A DNA stretch of 42,778 nucleotides from a virus (IMGVR_UViG_2541047878_000002:1-42778), one strand, 5' to 3'. Positions 1,419 to 42,778 are shown, counted from the stretch's first letter. Translations and numbers: made by a program. The notes: generated from the sequence alone by a model not told the origin.

Positions 1419-2489
1419 TTATTTGATTTCAATTTTGTCCCACTCCCTGCCTCTGTCATCACGATACTGTGATGCCATGGTGTCCGACTTATGCCCGAGA
1501 AGATGTTGAGCAAACTTATCGCTTATCTGCTTCTCATAGAGTCTTGCAGACAAACTGCGCAACTCGTGAAAGGTAGGCGGATCCCCTTCGAAGGAAAGAC
1601 CTGATGCTTTTCGTGCGCGCATAAAATACCTTGATACTGTGCCGGATGAAAGCGGTTCACGACGAGTAGATGCAATTATGGTTTCTCCGCCAAGAATCTC
1701 TTTGCATTTATCAAGTGTTTCCTTCATTGATATCCCAAGAGCATCAACATGCAATGTTGTTGGGATGGCAATTTTTACGCCGGTTTTGCTTTGCTCGACA
1801 TAAAGATAGCCATCTACGATATCAGACCACTTCATTTCGCATAAATCCCCAACACGCTGCCCGGTAACAACAGCCAGTTCCATTGCAAGTCTAAGCCAAC
1901 ATGGTGATGATTCTGCTGCTTGATAAATTTTCAGGTATTCGTCAGCCGTAAGTCTTGATCTCCTTACCTCTGATTTTGCTGCGCGAGTGGCAGTGACCGG
2001 GTTTGTTGTTATATGGCCTTCAGCTATTGCCTCTCGGAATGCATCGCTCAGTGTTGATCTGATTAACTTGGCTGACGCCGCCTTGCCCTCGTCTATGTAT
2101 CCATTGAGCATTGCTGCAATTTCTTTTGTGGTGATGTCTTCAAGTGGAGCATCAGGCAGCCCCCTCCTTATTGCTTTAATTTTGCTCATGTAATTTATGA
2201 GTGTCTTCTGCTTGATTCCTCTGTTGGCGAGGATTTTTTCGTAGCGATCAAGCCATGAATGTAACGTAACAGAATTATCACTGTTGATTCTCGCTGTCAG
2301 AGGCTTGTGTTTGTGTCCTGAAAATAACTCAATGTTGGCCTGTATAGCTTCAGTGATTGCTATCCTCCTGTCTCGGCCTAATCCAAACTCTTTACCCGTC
2401 CTTGGGTCCCTGTAGCAGTAATATCCATTGTTTCTTATATAAAGATTAGGGGGTAAATCCCGGCGCTCATGACTTCGCCTTCTTCCCAT
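1419..2489 (-). CDS. int: Tyrosine integrase, lambda Int type
   Basis: 356 aa, N-terminus MGRRRSHERRDLPPNLYIRNNGYYCYRDPRTGKEFGLG matches recalled lambda Int; adjacent to attL and reading toward it. Confidence 0.95.
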   Translation of the reverse strand: MGRRRSHERRDLPPNLYIRNNGYYCYRDPRTGKEFGLGRDRRIAITEAIQANIELFSGHKHKPLTARINSDNSVTLHSWLDRYEKILANRGIKQKTLINYMSKIKAIRRGLPDAPLEDITTKEIAAMLNGYIDEGKAASAKLIRSTLSDAFREAIAEGHITTNPVTATRAAKSEVRRSRLTADEYLKIYQAAESSPCWLRLAMELAVVTGQRVGDLCEMKWSDIVDGYLYVEQSKTGVKIAIPTTLHVDALGISMKETLDKCKEILGGETIIASTRREPLSSGTVSRYFMRARKASGLSFEGDPPTFHELRSLSARLYEKQISDKFAQHLLGHKSDTMASQYRDDRGREWDKIEIK

Positions 2490-2685
2490 TTTTGATCCTC
2501 TTCAAAAGGCTACCTGTTACTGGTCGATTTAAGTCAACCTTTACCGCTGATTCGTGGAACAGATACTCTCTTCCATCCTTAACCGGAGGAGGGAATATCC
2601 TGCACTCGCGTACCCATCGACGAACTGTTTCAAGGCTTCTTGGGCGTCGCTGGCGTGCGTTCCACTCCTGAAGTGTCAAGTACAT
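2467..2685 (-). CDS. xis: Excisionase, lambda Xis type
   Basis: 72 aa MYLTLQEWNARQRRPRSLETVRRWVRECRIFPPPVKDGREYLFHESAVKVDLNRP…; overlaps int start by 23 nt as in lambda. Confidence 0.9.
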   Translation of the reverse strand: MYLTLQEWNARQRRPRSLETVRRWVRECRIFPPPVKDGREYLFHESAVKVDLNRPVTGSLLKRIKNGKKAKS

Positions 2686-2775
2686 CGCAAAGTCTCCGCA
2701 ATTACACGCAAGAAAAAACCGCCATCAGGCGGCTTGGTGTTCTTTCAGTTCTTCAATTCGAATATTGGTTACGTC

Positions 2776-3087
2776 TTATTCGATGCGCACTCCTGGTATT
2801 TCGCCTTTTGATATTGCGAAGTCATAAATTTGCGCAGCACTATACCCATCTCGCATCCATGAATCTAATGCGCGAATAGCCTCGCTACGCTTTTTATCTT
2901 CTCTCTCATTTTTGATATCAACGAGGACATCAACGCAATTAAGGCAAATGTGGATTTTGTCCTTACATTCGATCATGGCGGCTTTACCATGATTTCCGCC
3001 ACACAGTGAGCATAAATCTTCAGGGTCTGGCTGGTATTTCTGTAACGTTAGATGGTTGAATGTTGAACAGGCCATAATCATCTCCAT
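2776..3087 (-). CDS. Hypothetical Cys-rich early-left protein (CxxC…CxxC, possible zinc ribbon)
   Basis: 103-aa ORF co-oriented with the pL operon; motifs CSLCGG…CLNC. Confidence 0.45.
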   Translation of the reverse strand: MEMIMACSTFNHLTLQKYQPDPEDLCSLCGGNHGKAAMIECKDKIHICLNCVDVLVDIKNEREDKKRSEAIRALDSWMRDGYSAAQIYDFAISKGEIPGVRIE

Positions 3088-3146
3088 AAAACAAAACTCG
3101 CCGTAGCGAGTTCAGATAAAAGAAATCCCCGCGAGTTCGAGGATTG

Positions 3147-3470
3147 TTATTCATTGCCGATATTCACCTTTATCGCGAACACCTTTACCGGTTTATCGCC
3201 GAAGTGCGGATGTGTGATTGTCTTGATTTCATATCCGTCATACGGAACATCAATTCTACGGCTGGAATCGTCGCGCTTCGGATATCCCTTTGTGATAATC
3301 AGGCGATCATACTCCCGGAACATAATTCGCTTATTCCAGTAGTCATTACACAGGCGATACTCTTCCGTTTTCTCTCTGCGAATCATGGCATCGAAGTATT
3401 CACCTTTAACGGCAAGTTGTAGGTTAGCCAAGGTTAACCTCCTGCGGCGGTTCTGCTGCAAAATACGCAA
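3147..3470 (-). CDS. Hypothetical protein, possibly DUF3850/ASCH-like
   Basis: 107 aa; pattern LQLAVKGEYFDAMIRREKTEEYRLCNDYW resembles the recalled ASCH/DUF3850 signature (YF.A...G.KT.E.R.ND); family assignment from memory only. Confidence 0.45.
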   Translation of the reverse strand: MRILQQNRRRRLTLANLQLAVKGEYFDAMIRREKTEEYRLCNDYWNKRIMFREYDRLIITKGYPKRDDSSRRIDVPYDGYEIKTITHPHFGDKPVKVFAIKVNIGNE

Positions 3471-4185
3471 TACCTTTATCCCAGATGGATTTTATGGTCG
3501 TCCATGTGACTGGTACTTTAATTTCAATCCGCCCGCTACCGTCACAGGTATCGCAATCATCATCGCCAAAGCATTCCGGGCAGCTGATAAACGTAGTTTC
3601 TGAAAATTCACCGGATAGCGCACCCTTAGCGCCGTTCTCGGCTGTTAGTCTCTTCGGCACCATGACCCAACCATCCGGAGTTACCGGAGAGTTGCCATTT
3701 ACATCGAAGTTTGGCTCTGCGTCCTGAACCAGGAGGATGTAACCATTCTTGGCAGTATCAAGTTCTAACGCCTCGGTGACGGTGCCGAAATAGCGATTAC
3801 CTAAATCAGCATCACAAGTGCTTACATCAATGGAAACTTCCATGCCTTCGATTAATTCTGGCAAGTTGTAAGTTTGGCTTACAGGTTGGCTACCCTGAAG
3901 CATGGAGGCGCGGTGACACCAGATAATCCAGCCAAGCGCCATATCCCATGCCATGTATTCTCTATCGCCATTTTTTGCCCTACGGCGATCTACAGATTCC
4001 CCGAAACGCTTCTCCATAAATAATTCATAGGCTGCTCGTTCATCCGATACTGCTGCCAGTGATGCCAGTGCAATTCGTGCCAGTTCTTCCGCTTCTTCTG
4101 CTGGAAGTACAACGTTGCTACCCGGTCCGTATGTTTCGCGCCACTGCTTGATTGTCAGCAGTCGCTCTTTGGTAATAGTGGTCAT
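3424..4185 (-). CDS. Hypothetical early-left protein with C-terminal Cys cluster
   Basis: 253-aa ORF, C-terminal CPECFGDDDCDTCDGSG motif; no family recognised. Confidence 0.5.
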   Translation of the reverse strand: MTTITKERLLTIKQWRETYGPGSNVVLPAEEAEELARIALASLAAVSDERAAYELFMEKRFGESVDRRRAKNGDREYMAWDMALGWIIWCHRASMLQGSQPVSQTYNLPELIEGMEVSIDVSTCDADLGNRYFGTVTEALELDTAKNGYILLVQDAEPNFDVNGNSPVTPDGWVMVPKRLTAENGAKGALSGEFSETTFISCPECFGDDDCDTCDGSGRIEIKVPVTWTTIKSIWDKGIAYFAAEPPQEVNLG

Positions 4186-4195
4186 TTGTTATGCC

Positions 4196-4435
4196 TCAAT
4201 ACACGAAATCTGTTTTAAATTCATGGTTACATTCTGGACAGCATGTTTCGTAACCTTTTATTTCTTCACATGCCTGTTTAGCTCCAGAAAACTCCCAGAA
4301 ATCTGGATCACAAAGCAGATCGAAATTGTGACCACATTTGGGACATTCGGTATCAAGTGACAGACTCCAGTAGGCAGTGGTGTTTTTATCCATCTCACTC
4401 TCCTTTGATGCGAATACCAGCGGCGCGGGAATCAT
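4196..4435 (-). CDS. Small zinc-ribbon-like hypothetical protein
   Basis: 79 aa with CPKCGH…CCPECNHEF (two CxxC pairs). Confidence 0.45.
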   Translation of the reverse strand: MIPAPLVFASKESEMDKNTTAYWSLSLDTECPKCGHNFDLLCDPDFWEFSGAKQACEEIKGYETCCPECNHEFKTDFVY

Positions 4436-5168
4436 TCCATCGCTTTACTTCTTCACGAATTACGTCAATGCATTCTTTCGAATCCATTAGGTAATCTTCA
4501 TCAAAAAGCCTTTCCTGTTCGTTTTCTATCGCAACAATGATTGCTTCAACTAACTTTTGTGCCTGAGAACCACTTTCTAACTCTGCAATGCGCTTCTCTG
4601 CGGCTTCCAGCTTCTCGCGCATATCGTCAACGTACTCGACCAGAGATCCGCCAGCAGGAATTTCGCACTCCTCGACCAGTTGGAAGTAGATATCAGCTGC
4701 GGCCCGTGTGTTGCTATGCCTAGCGTCGCCCATCTCACCTTCACGAAGAGCATCGCGTTCGGCGGTAAGATTGGCTATTTTGCTGTCTTTGCCTTCCAGC
4801 TCAACACGCAGCTTCCCTACCGTTAGCGCAATATCCTCGTTCTCCTGGTCACGGCTTTTGATGTATTGCTGGTTTCTTTCCCGTTCATCCAGTAGTGCCA
4901 GCACGGTAGCCGGATTGGCTGCGGCGATGAATTCAGCATTGGCCTGCTGTTCTATTTGGAAATCTTCATCGAAACCGCTTTCTGGATGCGCTCCTTCAAT
5001 TCTGCAAATGGGAATATATCCAGCAGCCTCGCGGTGAATTAGTGCATCATCACCATCAAATCGGCTCTCCCCATATTCGAGCGACCACTCACCACACGTT
5101 GCTTTTTCTGCCTTGGCACGCAGCGCCTGATAGTCAATCTTGCTCACTGGCTGCCTCCTTTGCGCCAC
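4395..5168 (-). CDS. Ead/Ea22-like acidic coiled-coil protein
   Basis: 257-aa acidic ORF with coiled-coil segment, in the early-left region; an internal GTG at 5147 with an AGGAGG SD is a more likely start than the ORF-track start. Confidence 0.5.
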
Positions 5169-5307
5169 ATCGCATTCAGATATTTGTTTTGATTCACTGA
5201 TGGAAAAGAATTTCTCTTAAGCAATTCCTCTCTCGATGGCATTGGTTTTACGCGTTGGCGAATAATCATTTCTGCCGGAAGAATGCCGGGATTGTATGCA
5301 AGTCCTC

Positions 5308-5589
5308 TCATGATTTACTCTCCACGAACTGGTCAACGGCCATGCTAAGTGACACACCTAAAGTCTCGATATGCTGCTGAATATCCTGTAGCGTCTGCGC
5401 CTGGGATAACAGGATTTCACGGTTGCATAATTCTTTAACCAGATGCTCAAACTTGCTGTAATAACCGATACGGCTTAGTGTTTCTTTCCCTGCATTCTCG
5501 CCTTCTTTGATAATTCCTCTTTCATTAAGAATCAGGTCGTGTTTTGTTCCAGTAATAACGTATTTTCCTAGGTCGATGTTTAGCTTCAT
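5308..5589 (-). CDS. Hypothetical protein
   Basis: 93-aa ORF co-oriented in the pL operon. Confidence 0.45.
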
Positions 5590-5605
5590 TGTTAATTACT
5601 CCATG

Positions 5606-5926
5606 TTAATTTATTCGTATGCCTGCTCTTTCTTCATCGAGTTTTTTTAGCTTGTATCGCATAGCTCTTACTGAATAAATTGAGCGGCAGGTTGCAATTG
5701 CTATTTCTTCTGCGGAGAACTTACCGAAAAGTGATACTTCGGCTCTTGTCCAGCGTCTTCCACGAAGTCGGCTAACAATGTCAGCGCCAATCCTTGTTGC
5801 TTTCGCCATAACTGCTTTTTCAGTCCTTTCCAGTTTTTCAGCGATAACTTCAACTGGCATTGTCGCCGCTACTTCGCGCAAGAAATCGACTTCCCATTTC
5901 TCCCATGGAGTCTTTTTCATAGGCAA
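5606..5926 (-). CDS. Hypothetical protein
   Basis: 106-aa ORF co-oriented in the pL operon. Confidence 0.45.
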   Translation of the reverse strand: MPMKKTPWEKWEVDFLREVAATMPVEVIAEKLERTEKAVMAKATRIGADIVSRLRGRRWTRAEVSLFGKFSAEEIAIATCRSIYSVRAMRYKLKKLDEERAGIRIN

Positions 5927-5931
5927 TACCG

Positions 5932-6420
5932 TTATTTGATAAGAAGTGAAGGTTTCCCAACTTTGAGTTGAGCGCCGGGGATATTTATTCCTGCTTTTAG
6001 TTGGTGTTTGATTGCCAGTTTGTCGGCTTTAATTGTCGTTTCAAACTCAACGTATTCAGGAGGAAGGGCGCTTGAGTCGATTATTTCTACAGTTTCTGAC
6101 GGTTTGCGGATTGTTACCTGGTGAATACCTGCTCGAATCTTTTTCTTGCCAACCATTTCAAGCGATGACGCTATATACGCCATAATGCTGTCAATCTTAT
6201 TTTGAATTACTGCTGCTCGTTCATTCAGTGACTTTGCCTCGTCCTTGAGGCGTTCAGCATAACCAGATTCATTTTTAATAATGGCAAGAAGTTGCTCTAT
6301 TTTATCGGTAAATTCTCCTTCCATTCCTTCTATTGTGTCAGCAATCATCTCTGGCTCTAAATCTGAATCCATCAGCTTTGCGTATTCATTGGCTATTTCA
6401 TACAGTTTGCTCACTGGCAA
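5932..6420 (-). CDS. Gp157-family protein (recombination-module accessory protein usually next to RecT/Sak)
   Basis: 162 aa, immediately downstream of RecT with overlapping ends; family call from memory. Confidence 0.55.
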   Translation of the reverse strand: MPVSKLYEIANEYAKLMDSDLEPEMIADTIEGMEGEFTDKIEQLLAIIKNESGYAERLKDEAKSLNERAAVIQNKIDSIMAYIASSLEMVGKKKIRAGIHQVTIRKPSETVEIIDSSALPPEYVEFETTIKADKLAIKHQLKAGINIPGAQLKVGKPSLLIK

Positions 6421-7309
6421 CCTCCAGTTTCGCTTTGCATTCTATGTAAATGGCTTGTACGTTCTGCTGCAATTTCATTCCAGATGTCAGGCGATATGCT
6501 TCTGCAAAATATCGCTTCAAATCATCCATGTTTTCAGCCTGAGCCATTTCATCACAAAGAAGTTGTGCTTTATCCGTTATTTCCTGCTGGCGTTTCCGTT
6601 CATCTTCGCGGATATCTTCCTCTGATTTGTGCGGCATAACTGGTTCAGTCCAAACACCTTCTTCTTCGTTTAGTACGTGAATAGCACTATCAAGACGTGA
6701 TGCCTTAGGCCAATACTTGCTTGCACGCTTTACGACCGTCTTTCGCGCCATCTCATTCCAGTGATTTACCCATGGTCCTTTATCGCTGAATGCCGCCTTG
6801 CTTGTTTTCCTTACAGCCTCAATTTCAGCCAGACTCATCTCTTCCGTTAGATAATCACCTGCTGGCGTCTTAACTGTGCAGTAAACGCCAACGATATCAC
6901 CACGATCACCGAAGGCGTTGTATTTATGGGTTGGTGCTTTATCAAGCCCGTTTGACTCATAGGTATCGTTAGCATGAACAAGTTTTGCCTGACCCCATGA
7001 GATAACACCAGACTCCATTGCAATATGGAGCAATCCCATATAACTGATATCAAGGCAAACCATGCCGTCGCGCGGAACCAGATAAGCCAGTTTGCTGGCC
7101 GGGTTTAAGGTGATGCCGATCGCCGCAACATTGATGATGGCGTTCTGTGCGCTGGTTGGATTTGCCAGTGCCGTTTTAGCCAGGTAATCATTTTTCTGGA
7201 AATACTGAATTGCAAACTGGCTTTCCTTAGCCCATGTCACCGTCTGTTCAGTCAATGCTCCGCAGAATAACTGCTCTTGCTGTTTAACGAATTCAACGAT
7301 ATTGCTCAT
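6398..7309 (-). CDS. recT: RecT-family single-strand annealing recombinase
   Basis: 303 aa with RecT-like core (…LNPASKLAYLVPRDGMVCLDISYMGLLHIAMESG…GDRGDIVGVYC…); occupies the lambda bet position in the pL operon. Confidence 0.85.
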   Translation of the reverse strand: MSNIVEFVKQQEQLFCGALTEQTVTWAKESQFAIQYFQKNDYLAKTALANPTSAQNAIINVAAIGITLNPASKLAYLVPRDGMVCLDISYMGLLHIAMESGVISWGQAKLVHANDTYESNGLDKAPTHKYNAFGDRGDIVGVYCTVKTPAGDYLTEEMSLAEIEAVRKTSKAAFSDKGPWVNHWNEMARKTVVKRASKYWPKASRLDSAIHVLNEEEGVWTEPVMPHKSEEDIREDERKRQQEITDKAQLLCDEMAQAENMDDLKRYFAEAYRLTSGMKLQQNVQAIYIECKAKLEVASEQTV

Positions 7310-36617: not shown

Positions 36618-37346
36618 ATGACTTTTAAGAATGTAGCAAACATCGGATCCGTTGTCACGGATAAAACCATTGACAGCCAGCGCCTGCTTGAGATGGTCAA
36701 TCATGCTCGTAGACAGTGCGGGGAAAAAGAAGTCCGCAATAACGACTTTATTGCACGCATTAAGGATGAACTTGAAGGTGAGCACTACGAAATTTTCGTA
36801 GTTCAAAAATCAAACAAGACAAGTTCTGAAAAAGTTGTTATGTCAATTAAGCAAGCCCTTCGAGTGGCTGCTCGTGAATCTAAAGCTGTTCGCCGCTCAC
36901 TGGTAGACCAACTTGAAAGTATGCAAGAAGCGCACATTAAAAGCGGTAAATCAGCGAGTGGACTTGTTGAGTATCGTCAAGCGCGAACATTGAAAATGAC
37001 GGTTGAAGCTGTTACCAATCTGTTCGATCTGATGCCAAATCTTGCGCCTGAGGCAAAGCAGACAGCGGCAGCAAGTATAATCAACCCGCTCGTTGGTTTT
37101 AATGCAATACCTCTTCCGGCAATAGAAGAGCATTACTACTCAGCAGGGGAGGTTGCAGAGCAGCTTGGAGTAACGGCCAACAAGATTGGTCGCATTGCTA
37201 ACGCAAACAACCTCAAAACTGAGCAGTACGGGAAGTTCTTCCTGGATAAATCGGCGCATTCCAGCAAACAGGTAGAGGCGTTTCGTTACAATTCTGAAGG
37301 CGTTAAAGCACTACAACACCTGCTACATGGCTCAAATGTGGCGTAA
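36618..37346 (+). CDS. Hypothetical protein, possibly a second antirepressor-type protein
   Basis: 242 aa from ATG 36618 with AAGGA SD; co-transcribed with arc-like and Bro-N genes; no confident family call. Confidence 0.45.
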   Translation: MTFKNVANIGSVVTDKTIDSQRLLEMVNHARRQCGEKEVRNNDFIARIKDELEGEHYEIFVVQKSNKTSSEKVVMSIKQALRVAARESKAVRRSLVDQLESMQEAHIKSGKSASGLVEYRQARTLKMTVEAVTNLFDLMPNLAPEAKQTAAASIINPLVGFNAIPLPAIEEHYYSAGEVAEQLGVTANKIGRIANANNLKTEQYGKFFLDKSAHSSKQVEAFRYNSEGVKALQHLLHGSNVA

Positions 37347-37364
37347 CATTTTATAATGAAAACT

Positions 37365-37390
37365 AAACCCGCTTAATCGCGGGTTTTTTC
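37365..37390. terminator. Bidirectional intrinsic terminator between convergent genes
   Basis: cccgc-ttaatc-gcggg hairpin flanked by A-run upstream and TTTTTTC downstream; overlaps the mnt paralogue-2 stop codon. Confidence 0.45.
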
Positions 37391-37630
37391 TTTCCTTAGA
37401 ATTTCAGCCGCAACTTCTTTTACTCGTTCCGAGATTAATGAGGCCAGCCTCTCTTCTTCATCACGATACCCGCTTACAGGTGATGGTTTGGAGAGTGATT
37501 CTTCCATCGTAGCCACAATTTCGGAATTGATAGACCTGTTATTCATTTTTGCACGCTGCTTAATCTTAGCGTGCAACTCGTGTGTAAGCCTCAAGTGGAA
37601 CTGCGCCTCATCGTATTTGCTGTACATCAT
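37373..37630 (-). CDS. mnt: Mnt-like repressor (paralogue 2, closest to P22 Mnt)
   Basis: 85 aa from ATG 37630: MMYSKYDEAQFHLRLTHELHAKIKQRAKMNNRSINSEIVATMEESLSKPSPVSGYRDEEERLAS… matches recalled P22 Mnt along its length; the ORF-track N-extension overlaps the tailspike and was rejected. Confidence 0.7.
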   Translation of the reverse strand: MMYSKYDEAQFHLRLTHELHAKIKQRAKMNNRSINSEIVATMEESLSKPSPVSGYRDEEERLASLISERVKEVAAEILRKEKTRD

Positions 37631-37762: not shown

Positions 37763-40468
37763 ATGACAGACATTACAGCCAATGTTGTAGTGAGCATGCC
37801 TTCGCAACTCTTCACTATGGCGCGTTCTTTTAAAGCCGTAGCTAATGGCAAAATTTATATCGGTAAAATTGACACTGACCCGGTAAATCCTGATAACCAG
37901 ATTCAGGTCTATGTTGGGAACGAAGATGGTTCTCACGTTCCTGTTGCACAGCCAATCGTCATCAATGCCGCTGGGTATCCAGTATATAACGGACAGATTG
38001 CCAAATTCGTAACCGTGCAAGGCCATTCTATGGCTGTTTACGATGCTTATGGCACTCAGCAGTTTTATTTCCCAAATGTATTAAAATACGATCCAGATCA
38101 GTTTGGCCCAGACTTCAAAGAGCAGTTATCTCAATCAGGAGCATACATTAATGATGATTCAAAAGGTGATGCATTAATTGGGGTAAGGCAGCCATTTACC
38201 GGGGCTGTAACTATAACTCAGCATGAAAACAATGCTCTTTTCTTAAATGTAAAACAATTCGGAGCAATTGGGGATGGGAAATATCATCCATTATCTGAGA
38301 GGTTTTCTTCAATTTCTGAAGCAAAATCCTTATATCCTTTTGTTGACTCATTATCTCAGTCAATAGACTGGGCCGCGTGGCAAGCTGCCCTTAACACAGG
38401 AAAGGTTATTTATGGTACTGATAATGCGTATGTAATAACGGATACGTTAACACCTGTTTCTGGTGGTGGGATAATTGGTCTTGGTGTGGGCAAATGGGTC
38501 TCCGGATATACTGCAACATTTGCTCCTGATATTACCACAGGGACCACATTCCTGATGTACGGGGTAGGAAATAAAAAATATACTGTAGATTGTGTTTCTA
38601 ATATGGATGTTAGTGGTGGTGTGGTTTCTAATCCATCTTCCGAAGACCCGTATACAACAACAGCACCTGCGTCATCATATGATTTATTGGATTTTACTAA
38701 CGGTGATGCTAATGGGACTACAAGAGCCACGCTTAAACCATTCTCTGCCGCAATATTGATGCCTGAGACAGGATGTGTTCGCCTTGAGAACTTTCGTGTT
38801 GTTCCATATTTCAATGGGCTGGATGGTTATAAAGACATTGCAAATACCGGTCTTGGCGATGAGTGGGATGTAGGTATTTGGTCACGTGCGTCTTTTGGCA
38901 ATGAATACCGCAATTTGCAGGTGGTTGGATACTGGCGCAAGACGGCACTTTTAAAAACGAACATTCCTGTATCTGGCACGCTGGCTGCTCAGGGCGAGGA
39001 TGAAAACTATTATCACTGTAGATTCCAGGGATTCAAGGGTGTTTCGATCCGCGCCAATGATGTATTCCGAATTACAGCGGTAACGTCCAGCACTATCGAA
39101 ATCCCATGGTCAGCAAGCCACACCTTCGAAACGTCCGGAGTTTTAAGATCTGGAGGCAGGAATTTCACTTATTCAGGATTATCCGTATCCGGTGATAAGT
39201 TAGTATTTACTGGAGTGTCTAACGCTTCTGAGGCAACAGTAGGTTCTACTATACGGCGAAATGACATAGATAACTTTGGTATGGCGGGAACGCAATTTTT
39301 CGATTGCTACATTACCAGCCTGTATCACCACACACATCTGCTTGCCACATCGCAATACCTGTCTCAACCATTCAGCCGACCATCAGAGTGTATGGAGGTT
39401 TCAGGGGAACCAGTTCGCGGTGTACAGGTACATGCAGGAACCATTCAGGGATGGGATGATGTTCTTATTCATCTGCATGACTGTGGAAATATGAACTTTT
39501 ACAGTACATATTTCGAAAGCCAGCAAGCATATGTAACTATAAATGGTGGTAATGCTATTGGTTATGGAGCACGTATGATAGCTTCCCGGCAATCAACAAG
39601 CTCATTACCATATGCAGCAGGGAATACACGAGTGCTTAGAATGGTCGGGTGCTCTGAAGGCAATGGCGTTGACTGGGGTCCTGTATTTAACAACTATACA
39701 GGAGGAAGATATAATTCTGGAGACGGTGTATTTAACCCCCGCGATGCATTTATAGACCATAAATCTCTTCCTGAGCAGTCAGGAGGTGAGTCAAGACTCG
39801 TATCACAAAAAGGAAATGCCAGAGTAGTATGTGGTGTTGGTAAAACTGTACTGCTTGGACCAACGTCAGGAGATTGTAATTTACAGAGTAATACCGGAAG
39901 TTTAAATATTAGAAGTGGGATAAGAGTAAGAGTCGGTCACGCTGATGGAACAGACTGGTGGTTGGCAGATGCTAATAAAATAGCTCCTGTTGATGATAAT
40001 GTTAAAGCTATTGGACAGCCATCAAACAGATGCTCTGTTATCTATGCAGGAACCGGGTCAATCAATACATCAGATGAAACTCTTAAAACAAGATATGATA
40101 TTATTAATGCAGAGCGTGATGCCGCTATTGAAATAAAGTCAGTCATCTATAAATTTAAATTTAATGACTCAATTAATCACAAAGGAATTGAGTCGTCCAG
40201 GTATCATTTTGGCGTTGGCGCTCAAACCGTAGGGGATATTCTTAGAAAGCATGGTTTAAATCCTGAGCAATATGCTTTTTGGTGTTACGATGAATGGCCT
40301 GACGTATGGGATGAAGAGGTGATAACTGAAGAGAGCACAGATCCTGATACAGGTGAGAAAATTTATTCTCAATATAAAACAGGAGATATGATTCTTGTAA
40401 AAAAAGCAGGAGGACGCTACGGAATTCGTTATGACGAATTGGCTATGTTTATATTAATGGCAATGTAG
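37763..40468 (+). CDS. Tailspike: P22 gp9-type head-binding N-domain + divergent receptor-binding domain + C-terminal intramolecular-chaperone-like domain
   Basis: 901 aa; residues ~1-115 match recalled P22 gp9 ([11 protein letters not shown]…[22 protein letters not shown]…); AT-rich distal part; C-terminus carries …NTS|[10 protein letters not shown]… (S770/D771). Confidence 0.85.
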
Positions 40469-40957: not shown

Positions 40958-40972
40958 GCTTTTTTATACTAA
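40958..40972. repeat. attR core (GCTTTTTTATACTAA) preceded by lambda-like P arm
   Basis: identical to attL core; upstream 40815-40957 matches the recalled lambda P arm (tctgttacaggtcactaataccatctaagtagttgattcatagtgactgca…); downstream acttgagcg is the host B' arm. Confidence 0.9.
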
Positions 40973-41062: not shown

Positions 41063-41539
41063 TTAACTAAACATCGCAGTAATCGAGGCACTCGCCAGAG
41101 AGTGAAAATGAACGTTAAACCCGACCATCGCGCCGCTGGCACCTTCATCGACATCAATACGTTCTACATCCAGCGCGTGAACGGTAAAAATGTAGCGATG
41201 GGTTTCGCCTTTCGGCGGCGCTGCGCCATCGTACCCGGTTTTACCAAAGTCGGTACGCGTCTGCAAAACGCCGTCTGGCATAGCTACCAGACCAGAGCCA
41301 AACCCTTGCGGTAATACGCGGGTATCAGCGGGTAAATTAACAACTACCCAGTGCCACCAGCCGGAGCCGGTTGGCGCATCCGGGTCATAGCAGGTGACAA
41401 CAAAACTTTTCGTTCCCACAGGAACATCATCCCACGCCAGATGCGGTGAAATATTATCGCCATCGTAACCCATGCCGTTAAAGACATGACGATGCGGCAG
41501 CTTATCGCCATCGCGCAGATCGTTACTGATGAGTTTCAT
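41063..41539 (-). CDS. ybhB: YbhB, PEBP/RKIP-family protein (host gene flanking attB)
   Basis: 158 aa MKLISNDLRDGDKLPHRHVF… PEBP-like; right of attR as in E. coli. Confidence 0.85.
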   Translation of the reverse strand: MKLISNDLRDGDKLPHRHVFNGMGYDGDNISPHLAWDDVPVGTKSFVVTCYDPDAPTGSGWWHWVVVNLPADTRVLPQGFGSGLVAMPDGVLQTRTDFGKTGYDGAAPPKGETHRYIFTVHALDVERIDVDEGASGAMVGFNVHFHSLASASITAMFS

Positions 41540-41647
41540 TAGAATGCCTCCGGGAAACCTCGGCCTTCAGACCGGGGAGGAAAGGAGGCGGTTTTCCGAC
41601 TAACTGTACTTTGCATAATCACATTTTCCTCTTTAGTATGTGAACAC

Positions 41648-42778
41648 ATGAAACGCGCATATAAATACCGGTTTTACCCGACAACTGAGCAGGCTGAGCT
41701 TTTAGCTCAGACGTTTGGCTGTGTGCGCTTCGTCTACAATTCCATCCTTCGTTGGCGTACCGATGCGTACTACGAGCGAAAAGAAAAGATCGGTTATCTA
41801 CAGGCCAACGCTCGCCTTACGGCGCTCAAAAAAGAGCCTGAATACATATGGCTGAATGATGTTTCCTGCGTTCCCCTCCAGCAGTCGTTGCGCCACCAAC
41901 AAGCCGCCTTTGCTAACTTCTTTGCCGGACGAGCTGCATATCCGGCTTTCAAAAGCAAACGGCACAAACAGGTGGCTGAGTTCACTGCCAGCGCGTTTAA
42001 ACACCGTGACGGCGAGTTGTATATAGCAAAGAGCAAGTCGCCGCTGGATGTTCGCTGGAGTCGAGAATTACCATCTGCGCCGTCAACCGTTACCATTTCC
42101 AGAGATAGCGCTGGCAGGTACTTTGTTTCCTGCCTGTGTGAGTTTGAACCTGTATCAATGCCTGTTACCGCTAAAACGGTCGGCATTGATGTGGGCTTAA
42201 AAGATTTATTCGTCACCGATACCGGATTCAAAACCGACAATCCCCGCCACACCGCTAAATATGCGAAGCGATTAACGCTGCTACAGCGACGTTTAAGCAG
42301 GAAGCAAAAAGGCTCAAGAAACCGTATTAAAGCCCGCTTAAAGGTCGCCCGACTCCACGCGAAAATCGCCGATTGCCGGATGGACAATCTGCACAAGTTG
42401 TCCCGCAAACTGATTAACGAAAACCAAGTTGTTTGCGTCGAATCCCTCAAGGTGAAAAACATGATCCGCAACCCGAAGCTGTCTAAAGCAATAGCTGACG
42501 CAGGCTGGAGCGAACTTGTTCGCCAGCTCCAGTACAAAGGCAAATGGGCCGGGCGGTCAGTGGTCGCCATTGACCAGTATTTACCGTCCTCAAAATGCTG
42601 TAGTTGCTGCGGTTTCACCATGCAAAAAATGCCTCTTAATGTTCGTAAATGGCACTGCCCTGAATGCGGCGCAGACCATGATCGCGACATTAACGCGGCA
42701 CGTAATATTAAAGCTGCCGGGCTGGCAGTGTTAGCCCACGGAGAGCCTGTAAACCCTGAATCGCAGCACGCGGCTTAG
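41648..42778 (+). CDS. tnpB: TnpB (IS200/IS605-family OrfB, RNA-guided endonuclease family), intact
   Basis: 376 aa with RuvC-I GIDVGL, RuvC-II VCVESLKVKNM, RuvC-III HDRDINAARNI and zinc finger CCSCCG…CPECG; stop codon is the last triplet of the window. Confidence 0.85.
   Translation: MKRAYKYRFYPTTEQAELLAQTFGCVRFVYNSILRWRTDAYYERKEKIGYLQANARLTALKKEPEYIWLNDVSCVPLQQSLRHQQAAFANFFAGRAAYPAFKSKRHKQVAEFTASAFKHRDGELYIAKSKSPLDVRWSRELPSAPSTVTISRDSAGRYFVSCLCEFEPVSMPVTAKTVGIDVGLKDLFVTDTGFKTDNPRHTAKYAKRLTLLQRRLSRKQKGSRNRIKARLKVARLHAKIADCRMDNLHKLSRKLINENQVVCVESLKVKNMIRNPKLSKAIADAGWSELVRQLQYKGKWAGRSVVAIDQYLPSSKCCSCCGFTMQKMPLNVRKWHCPECGADHDRDINAARNIKAAGLAVLAHGEPVNPESQHAA

Follow-up and report, generated by a model that had tools for sequence, protein, structure and literature searches.

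TnpB was reportedly shown to be an RNA-guided nuclease by Karvelis and colleagues in 2021, and a later preprint is said to deal with its function in transposon retention. Another study reportedly describes the TldRs, which are TnpB-derived, nuclease-dead transcription factors or repressors. The TAM of ISDra2 is TTGAT. ISDra2 is autonomous, as it has tnpA, and its omega-RNA runs over the 3' end of tnpB and the right end (RE) into a guide that is taken from the flank. In IS608, the left cleavage site is ~19 nt 5' of its hairpin and the right one ~10 nt 3' of its own, and both are read by guide tetranucleotides located 5' of each hairpin foot (PMC3201880); the pairs are C_L TTAC with G_L AAAG and C_R TCAA with G_R GAAT (PMC5934647). 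The IS1341 group of ISfinder has a lone tnpB between the left end (LE) and the RE. Most OMEGA elements are tnpB-only (PMC10691335), and those of E. coli and Salmonella measure 1,252-1,393 bp (PMC9956272).

Related to these systems is GipA, which was called TnpB-like by Bao and Jurka in 2013, before TnpB was recognised as an RNA-guided nuclease (PMC3627910). The gipA gene is induced by bile salts and in macrophages and aids the colonisation of Peyer's patches (PMC7279240), and it is listed for strains LF82, CFT073 and 536 in the LF82 genome paper (PMC2941450). In other strain collections, the link between gipA and the AIEC pathotype was not reproduced, and phylogeny may account for it (PMC7205867).

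The window, that is, the whole stretch of DNA that was analysed (42,778 nucleotides), ends within an element of this kind, whose features are collected in Table 1. Taken together, the evidence makes it very probable that this is a non-autonomous, tnpB-only (IS1341) element of the IS200/IS605 family that stems from one insertion at ybhB, is immobile, retains an intact TnpB and omega-RNA, and is the same as gipA. Its TnpB aligns end to end with that of ISDra2, with the RuvC and zinc-finger residues in common, and its omega-RNA and guide are laid out in the same way; unlike ISDra2, it has no tnpA, and its putative TAM is TCAT. With IS608 it shares subterminal palindromes, guides at the hairpin feet, a similar cleavage spacing and insertion without duplication. 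The right pair, GAAT with TCAA, is identical in the two elements, whereas the left pair is GAAA with TCAT instead of AAAG with TTAC, tnpA is missing and the LE has an additional outer stem. As in the IS1341 group, a lone tnpB lies between LE and RE, and the length of 1,291 bp falls inside the range given above. The TldRs resemble the E. coli protein in belonging to the TnpB family, in their enterobacterial and prophage contexts and in having a guide complementary to sequence upstream of a host gene. Identity with a TldR was nevertheless rejected, as it requires loss of the RuvC catalytic residues and the triad D181, E265 and D347 is present here, whereas TldRs are nuclease-dead; moreover, the guide is an ordinary transposon flank.

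Table 1. Features of the element and its flank, in window coordinates unless another locus is named
Feature	Position	Strand	Basis
ybhB (kinase-inhibitor/PEBP family), host gene whose start codon abuts the element	41063..41539	-	NCBIfam equivalog, 343 bits
TCAT, target tetranucleotide and left cleavage site, putative TAM	41536..41539	+	comparison of empty and filled sites
Left end (LE), 108 nt	41540..41647	+	boundary by empty/filled comparison; kept in relatives
GCCTCC, left arm of the LE outer stem	41546..41551	-	DNA fold; pairs with GGAGGC at 41584-41589
GAAA, LE guide tetranucleotide (G_L), directly 5' of the hairpin foot	41554..41557	+	correlation across relatives and IS608 code
LE subterminal imperfect palindrome, CCTCGGCC-TTCA-GACCGGGG	41558..41577	+	sequence, DNA fold
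Overlapping promoter-like hexamers	41611..41644	both	consensus matches only
tnpB (= gipA), 376 aa	41648..42778	+	RuvC D181/E265/D347 and zinc finger; Pfam, NCBIfam, ISDra2 alignment
Omega-RNA scaffold, 5' part, overlapping the tnpB 3' end	42680..42778	+	covariation, 38 relatives
Omega-RNA remainder: 52 nt (RE hairpin, ending in TCAA) and 16-nt guide GAGCCCTCCTTTCTTG	CFT073 locus L001, 7780-7847		CFT073 sequence

Insertion site and boundaries

The starts of ybhB and tnpB diverge, and the gap between them is exactly 108 bp, as stated in the first-pass annotation of this DNA, which had also given bioA as the gene after ybhB in K-12. This gene order was found in both K-12 and UTI89, where bioA comes directly after ybhB at a spacing of 58 bp. 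The site is thus empty in these strains and reads TTTCAT/GAACCCTCC (also written TTTCAT/GAACCCTCCTTTCTTG), the slash marking the boundary. In CFT073 and in the window the site is filled and reads TTTCAT/TAGAATGCC...GCCGTCAA/GAGCCCTCC, or, written around the gene, TTTCAT/TAGAATGCC...(tnpB)...GGGGAGCCGTCAA/GAGCCCTCCTTTCTTG. Comparing the filled site of CFT073 with the empty sites of K-12 and UTI89 delimits an element of 1,291 bp that lies 3' of TCAT, brought no target duplication, starts at window position 41540 and stops 52 nt past the window end. Both ends being defined in this way, the proposal of an IS200/IS605-family insertion between ybhB and bioA is borne out. The target TCAT is the reverse complement of ATGA, i.e., of the ybhB start codon plus one base, and the YbhB protein has the same accession (WP_000767411.1) in filled (CFT073) and empty (UTI89) strains.

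The same boundaries are found elsewhere. In P1-like plasmids, the flanks of the insertion, once joined, match the prt-pro junction of phage P1 over 599/599 positions without a gap and with the same TCAT boundary, which is also present in about 25 relatives. The right terminus, TCAA, is where three independent copies (a truncated one on a plasmid, one on a P1-like plasmid and the chromosomal one) cease to align.

In CFT073 the gene order is ybhC, ybhB, tnpB, bioA and bioBFCD, with no prophage, and 1,779 bp of the region are 100% identical in CFT073, Nissle 1917, LF82, ATCC 25922 and many other strains. The arrangement of the window, in which a prophage is followed by ybhB and tnpB, occurs only in UPEC_U013 within the genome collection. 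Past the window end, UPEC_U013 and CFT073 have identical sequences, and from these the missing 52 nt and the guide can be supplied. The earlier remark that the right end and the omega-RNA are beyond examination therefore applies to the window itself, which does end on the tnpB stop codon, but is overcome by these two genomes.

The proximity of the prophage raises the question of whether tnpB is cargo of the phage integrated at att-lambda, as the gene lies 676 bp from the attR core (40958-40972) and the provirus calls of IMG/VR take it in. The probability of this is negligible. The chromosomal ybhB separates the attR core from the element, the arrangement of prophage and tnpB exists in one genome only, and CFT073 and many other strains have the element with the att site unoccupied; its presence in CFT073, which has no prophage at att-lambda, refutes the idea. 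For the same reason the link to the prophage and to the att-lambda boundary suggested by the first-pass annotation did not hold, as CFT073, Nissle and LF82 have the element but no prophage at this place.

Ends of the element and recognition of the target

The LE opens with 18 nt (TAGAATGCCTCCGGGAAA) ahead of a subterminal palindrome, which is the left-end hairpin whose search in the ybhB-tnpB gap had been recommended and which has one more mismatch than the GGCCGGGG of relatives. The RE contains, in this order, GAAT, the palindrome CCCCGTC-ATTCA-GGGCGGGG, AGCCG and TCAA; it extends over the 52 nt beyond the window, and TCAA finishes 9 nt past the hairpin foot. Both ends thus present the hallmark of the IS200/IS605 family, a subterminal imperfect palindrome with a guide tetranucleotide on its 5' side, and insertion 3' of a specific tetranucleotide without duplication, also typical of the family, was found in the E. 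coli and P1 pairs of filled and empty sites.

Read by the IS608 code, the guide GAAA predicts TCAT as the target. Across the relatives guide and flank covary, GA[AGT]A occurring with TCAT, AA[AG]A with TTAT and AAAG with TTAC, and this joint variation indicates that TCAT is the real target of the transposase of the element. By the logic of TnpB systems, TCAT would also be the TAM of TnpB. The outer stem of the LE covaries as well, with CCCCCC/GGGGGG in L010, CATCC/GGATG in L090 and GCGCG in other clades, which do not have the Shine-Dalgarno-like arm. As the first base and one hairpin pair of the E. coli LE differ from the consensus of the relatives, this end may no longer serve as a substrate for the transposase.

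Promoter-like hexamers overlap at the inner side of the LE. The + strand has TTGCAT-17 nt-TAGTAT (41611-41639), whose end is 8 nt upstream of the tnpB ATG and is followed by no Shine-Dalgarno (SD) sequence. The lack of an SD ahead of tnpB, together with a -10-like hexamer this close to the start codon, suggests that the tnpB mRNA is leaderless. On the - strand, TTCACA-18 nt-GATTAT (41644-41615) faces ybhB. It agrees with the consensus at 9/12 positions, is TG-extended and is not kept in all the relatives compared, and for these reasons no argument is built on this outward promoter.

The TnpB protein

The ORF occupies the last 1,131 bases of the window as 376 codons and closes on its final base. 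That it encodes a full-length TnpB with the RuvC motifs and the zinc finger, as had been noticed from the sequence, is confirmed by Pfam, by NCBIfam and by alignment to ISDra2. Three Pfam families are matched above their cut-offs (OrfB_IS605, the zinc-ribbon Cas12f1-like TNB and HTH_OrfB_IS605), and the score with the NCBIfam model guided_TnpB, whose cut-off is 100, is 369.5 bits. In a phmmer comparison with ISDra2 TnpB (8exa/8h1j), residues 3-369 align at E = 9e-75, and the three acidic RuvC residues and both CxxC pairs match. The gene product therefore combines what characterises the class, i.e., a RuvC D-E-D triad (D181, E265 and D347), a zinc finger of the TNB type (C318/C321/C337/C340) and an N-terminal HTH/WED region. 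Judged by the residues that are kept, TnpB appears catalytically intact, and by analogy it would be a nuclease with TCAT as its TAM.

The gene is under purifying selection, with dN/dS of about 0.1: pairwise values between the E. coli tnpB and 13 solo relatives range from 0.07 to 0.15, and tnpB has exactly 376 codons, without indels, at all 14 loci. For purifying selection of this strength on a lone, immobile copy, a purely selfish role in retention would account only in part.

Omega-RNA and guide

The 180 nt up to the TCAA terminus were aligned for 38 relatives, and the consensus fold comprises 34 pairs in 8 helices, of which the first lies inside the tnpB coding region (~42680) and the last is the right-end hairpin. 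Compensatory changes occur in 21 pairs. Standard pairs fill 96% of the cells, as opposed to 36-45% when the partners are slid by 1-3 columns, and the covariation score was reached by 0/500 shuffles. The arrangement typical of OMEGA systems, a structured RNA over the tnpB 3' end and the RE followed by a guide from the flank, is thus found here by covariation. Conservation of the omega-RNA scaffold is supported, and its expression is predicted. In Rfam, the best match was RAGATH-18 with 29 bits against a gathering score of 44.9 (E = 0.006, L001 7736-7801), and no family reached its gathering score on the omega-RNA of 16 relatives.

The predicted E. coli guide consists of the 16 nt that flank the right end, GAGCCCTCCTTTCTTG. 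Its position 3 is G, as opposed to A in the empty allele of nearly all other E. coli, a mismatch that would weaken cleavage of the common empty alleles.

With protein and RNA considered together, it is very improbable that the element is a decaying IS relic without function. Its single copy, the absence of tnpA and the slightly degenerate LE would agree with decay, but a full-length ORF of at least 99% identity is present in 333 genomes, the 14 loci compared give a dN/dS of about 0.1 and contain no indels, and compensatory changes preserve the omega-RNA helices.

Distribution and mobility

Among 5,426 complete E. coli genomes, 342 (about 6%) carry the element linked to ybhB, including CFT073, Nissle 1917, 536, LF82, ATCC 25922 and UPEC_U013, and 391 have any match to it. 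The chromosomal copies sit at ybhB in 342 of about 346 cases, and a genome holds the element at a median of 1 place and a maximum of 2. A further 45 copies, with about 81% identity, are on plasmids and correspond to a separate insertion in P1-like phage-plasmids. The possibility that the gene is a conserved fixture of the locus in all E. coli, devoid of IS ends, was rejected: only 6% of the genomes are carriers, the site is empty in K-12 and UTI89, and IS ends are delimited on either side.

No Y1 (HUH) TnpA is encoded inside the element, where the 108 nt between the LE boundary and tnpB contain no ORF. Among about 70 related loci, an adjacent Y1 tnpA was found at 1 only, from Endozoicomonadaceae, beside a truncated tnpB. 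Being without TnpA, the element falls in the tnpB-only IS1341 group, which is included in the IS200/IS605 family (PMC9956272, PMC10691335). Its relatives occupy many different sites across species. Within the 5,426 complete E. coli genomes, no sign of mobility was seen in the form of several copies or sites per lineage, and CFT073-like backgrounds yielded no excision allele. One genome with an empty site and the G variant was considered as a product of precise excision and rejected, because its flanks are ~4% diverged from CFT073, which makes it an independent polymorphism. The element looks immobile in E. coli, since there is no cognate TnpA beside it and no second copy, even though both TnpB and the omega-RNA are conserved.

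Identity with gipA

Among phage records, a translated search matched the "Peyer's patch-specific virulence factor GipA" of Gifsy-1 (AF246666) with 86.4% amino acid identity over residues 1-376. The Gifsy-1 record contains the same 1,291-bp element, with nearly identical LE and RE and the same TCAT and TCAA termini, between the tail genes gfoZ and gfoU, whereas the E. coli element is at ybhB. The strains LF82, CFT073 and 536, for which gipA had been listed, have one copy each, at the ybhB locus, with 100% identity between LF82 and the window over 1,779 bp. On both grounds, the Gifsy-1 identity and the locus shared by the three strains, the gene is orthologous to gipA, and the tnpB at ybhB is the published gipA. 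The gene was thus already known, as RefSeq annotates it as TnpB and the literature names it gipA. In the literature, GipA is a virulence factor, whereas the E. coli element is read here as a TnpB/omega-RNA system.

In view of these reports, TnpB might have been domesticated as an RNA-guided regulator of the host or phage, or as a virulence-related factor, and be selected for that role and not for the element. The dN/dS of about 0.1 in solo, single-copy, vertically inherited copies would agree with this, as would the reported part of gipA in Peyer's-patch colonisation and macrophage survival and its reported induction by bile salts (PMC7279240, PMC2941450). The TldRs, as TnpB-derived transcription factors, offer a precedent. 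Domestication is nonetheless unlikely, although it should be taken more seriously than decay. The RuvC residues are all intact, while TldRs are described as nuclease-dead; the guide comes straight from the neighbouring flank, which is the case for every mobile TnpB, and neither IS end has been lost or damaged. Furthermore, the same signature of selection is seen in copies at unrelated loci, and the association of gipA with AIEC, unreproduced elsewhere, may be phylogenetic (PMC7205867).

Insertion at start codons and a putative replacement Shine-Dalgarno

The position of the element directly at a start codon recurs in its relatives. The CAT that abuts the LE is the annotated start of the divergent gene in E. 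coli (ybhB), P1 (pro) and Gifsy-1 (gfoU), and likewise in the copies of a Yersinia plasmid (traX) and of Klebsiella phage RSU-F4K5. In relatives without annotation, the LE-abutting ATG opens ORFs of 143-779 aa in most cases. In 6 of the 10 ORFs scanned, a Pfam domain begins within the first 15 residues (GST, Tex, NAD_binding_2, tyrosine phosphatase, cation efflux and DHDPS), the DHDPS match starting from profile position 18 in an ORF that looks truncated; in the other scanned ORFs the domains start later (MFS at 23, heptosyltransferase at 88, DUF3142 at 87 and TraG-D_C at 439). Altogether, of 27 independent TCAT sites, about 20 coincide with the start of an ORF of at least 100 aa; L008, L062, L089, L094, L029 and L091 are exceptions. 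Many of the reconstructed empty sites have a native ribosome-binding sequence directly ahead of the ATG.

A wider sample was drawn from viral contigs (IMG/VR), in which elements were found by the left-end hairpin pattern (n=51). Here an ORF of at least 60 aa begins at 34/51 of the abutting ATGs, compared with 30% of 5,871 other TCAT sites of these contigs (binomial p = 1e-7); the right-end pattern recovered 9/51 right ends in this diverse sample. TCAT-targeting relatives, therefore, occupy host start codons far above chance.

The consequences for translation can be followed at ybhB, whose native SD, AGGAGG, is now on the far side of the element. Seen from the sense strand of ybhB, the GCCTCC of the outer stem is a GGAGGC that precedes the ATG by 7 nt, and it probably works as the ybhB SD. 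Since GCCTCC is the outer-stem arm of the gipA subclade in general, a host gene whose start codon abuts one of these elements gains GGAGGC 7 nt before its ATG. In Gifsy-1, the TCAA of the RE, which is TTGA on the other strand, gives gfoZ back its TGA stop, which at first overlapped with the ATG of gfoU.

These relations also bear on the phenotypes attributed to gipA in E. coli, as deletion of the tnpB ORF could have polar effects and alter the expression of bioA or of ybhB, which would depend on the LE. The element does part ybhB from its native SD and from bioA, leaving the only SD in the LE, and a promoter-like site faces ybhB. Polarity is improbable as the explanation, given that a phenotype is also reported for Salmonella, in which gipA has another context, the tail genes of Gifsy-1.

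The simplest reading of the start-codon bias is survivorship, because in compact genomes a TCAT on a start codon is among the few sites at which genes are spared by a 1.3-kb insert. Survivorship is especially plausible if the insert brings an SD. Alternatively, the TCAT clade may be specialised for ATGA starts, which are often stop/start overlaps within operons. It would enter exactly between the ribosome-binding site and the ATG, bring a replacement SD in the LE stem of the gipA subclade and restore TGA stops by means of TCAA. This second reading is put forward tentatively, as a possibility with the odds against it. The literature searched yielded nothing relevant on TCAT TAMs or on start-codon targeting by IS605/TnpB, and no description in it was found of operon-compatible start-codon insertion with an SD of the element's own. 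What is new is confined to the start-codon and SD pattern and to the reading of GipA as a complete RNA-guided system.

A model for the element at ybhB

If the element is a non-autonomous member of the IS1341 group, it would have been inserted a single time 3' of the TCAT at the ybhB start, by a single-strand mechanism for which a Y1 transposase was supplied in trans, and a subset of E. coli would have inherited it from then on at this single site. The TnpB ribonucleoprotein would cut the element-free allele, recognised by TCAT and a subsequent match to the guide, and recombination with the filled copy after cutting would restore or spread the element, which we infer to be a homing role by analogy with other TnpB systems. 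In phages and plasmids, the same cutting would act against related genomes that have no insert. The gene ybhB would stay translatable because the LE gives it a new SD 7 nt before its ATG, from which it would be translated, and its transcription would come by read-through from bioA, antisense to tnpB, or from the weak outward promoter-like site.

Implications

GipA serves as a marker and as a virulence factor for Crohn's-associated E. coli and for Salmonella. As judged from its sequence, it would be a complete TnpB/omega-RNA system, apparently functional, whose guide and putative TAM are defined, which makes its mode of action directly testable. If the start-codon pattern is an adaptation, insertion would be compatible with operons, and the omega-RNA guide would always be the antisense of a host ribosome-binding region. 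Under adaptation, as distinct from survivorship, the host gene would depend on the element, and the 'virulence' phenotypes of GipA could then follow either from this dependence of a host gene or from RNA-guided activity. An adaptive pattern would mean an unusual way of life for a transposon, which would reside inside the operons of phages, plasmids and chromosomes without breaking them.

Guide, target motif and self-targeting

The guide of the element differs from its expected targets at its third position, which lies just past the window end and is supplied by the filled CFT073 locus (L001 7832-7834). The filled lineage carries G at this position, whereas the empty ybhB-bioA allele, that of nearly all other E. 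coli, carries A; therefore, the omega-RNA carries a mismatch, near the TAM, to the alleles that are its expected targets. At the RE, the terminus TCAA (L001 7828-7831) is one base apart from the inferred TAM TCAT (window 41536-41539), the differing base being the one that adjoins the guide match, and this single position must be what blocks self-targeting of the RE-flank junction.

Start codons as insertion sites

TCAT-targeting IS200/IS605 elements are seated exactly on an ATGA start codon that belongs to a divergent host gene; they occupy such sites on chromosomes, on plasmids (traX) and in phages, the latter including P1 pro, Gifsy-1 gfoU and the head-tail joining gene of a Klebsiella phage. 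After insertion, the element separates the start codon from the native ribosome-binding site of the host gene. The coordinates of these and other features are collected in the table.

Features of the window and of related loci (L numbers)
Feature	Location	Remark
TCAT-targeting element at start codon	L003 4888-6185	P1-like plasmid
TCAT-targeting element at start codon	L086 304-1597	
TCAT-targeting element at start codon	L087 44851-46144	Yersinia frederiksenii plasmid
TCAT-targeting element at start codon	L090 2400-3683	
TCAT-targeting elements at start codons	L009-L066, near position 2890	
att-lambda core GCTTTTTTATACTAA	window 40958-40972	right prophage junction
Tailspike gene of prophage	window 37763-40468	
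LE outer stem GCCTCC/GGAGGC	window 41546-41551 and 41584-41589	the two arms pair

The same element family is represented several times, by copies or fragments, on the Yersinia frederiksenii plasmid L087 (including 576-1759 and 37041-37427): an intact one at traX, a second that is frameshifted and has its left end replaced, and a third that is a 3' fragment, which together suggest past mobility of the family in this plasmid. Separately, in the IMG/VR locus L138 (UViG_2914811602_000004, 1916-6827) the left-end hairpin motif occurs three times at a spacing of about 2.4 kb. Behind each copy lies an ORF of about 280 aa without apparent resemblance to TnpB, and this may represent different cargo on the same ends. 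The P1-like plasmid L003 also contains an IS10 RNA-OUT match (245-314, 99.5 bits), unrelated to the tnpB element.

Provirus boundary

The prophage is P22-like, with its tailspike in the window and, in the source genome (UPEC_U013), genes for Arc and P22AR; its arrangement relative to tnpB is found in only one of 5,426 genomes. The window stops at the last base of the tnpB stop codon (42778) because of provirus boundary calling. Many E. coli proviral contigs of IMG/VR (L095, L096 and L100, among others) share this end base, and ybhB and tnpB have thus been swept into the called 'provirus'.

Expression of tnpB and ybhB

In every relative, the tnpB ATG lacks a preceding Shine-Dalgarno sequence (window 41611-41647 and equivalent regions), and in the same regions a -10-like hexamer ends 8-10 nt upstream of the ATG, which suggests that the tnpB mRNA is leaderless. 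An opposite-strand promoter-like site fully overlaps this hexamer in the E. coli copy. As for the host gene, the Shine-Dalgarno that the LE supplies to the ybhB mRNA would, by predicted pairing, be sequestered in the outer stem of the LE itself, and translation of ybhB could in this way be structure-dependent.
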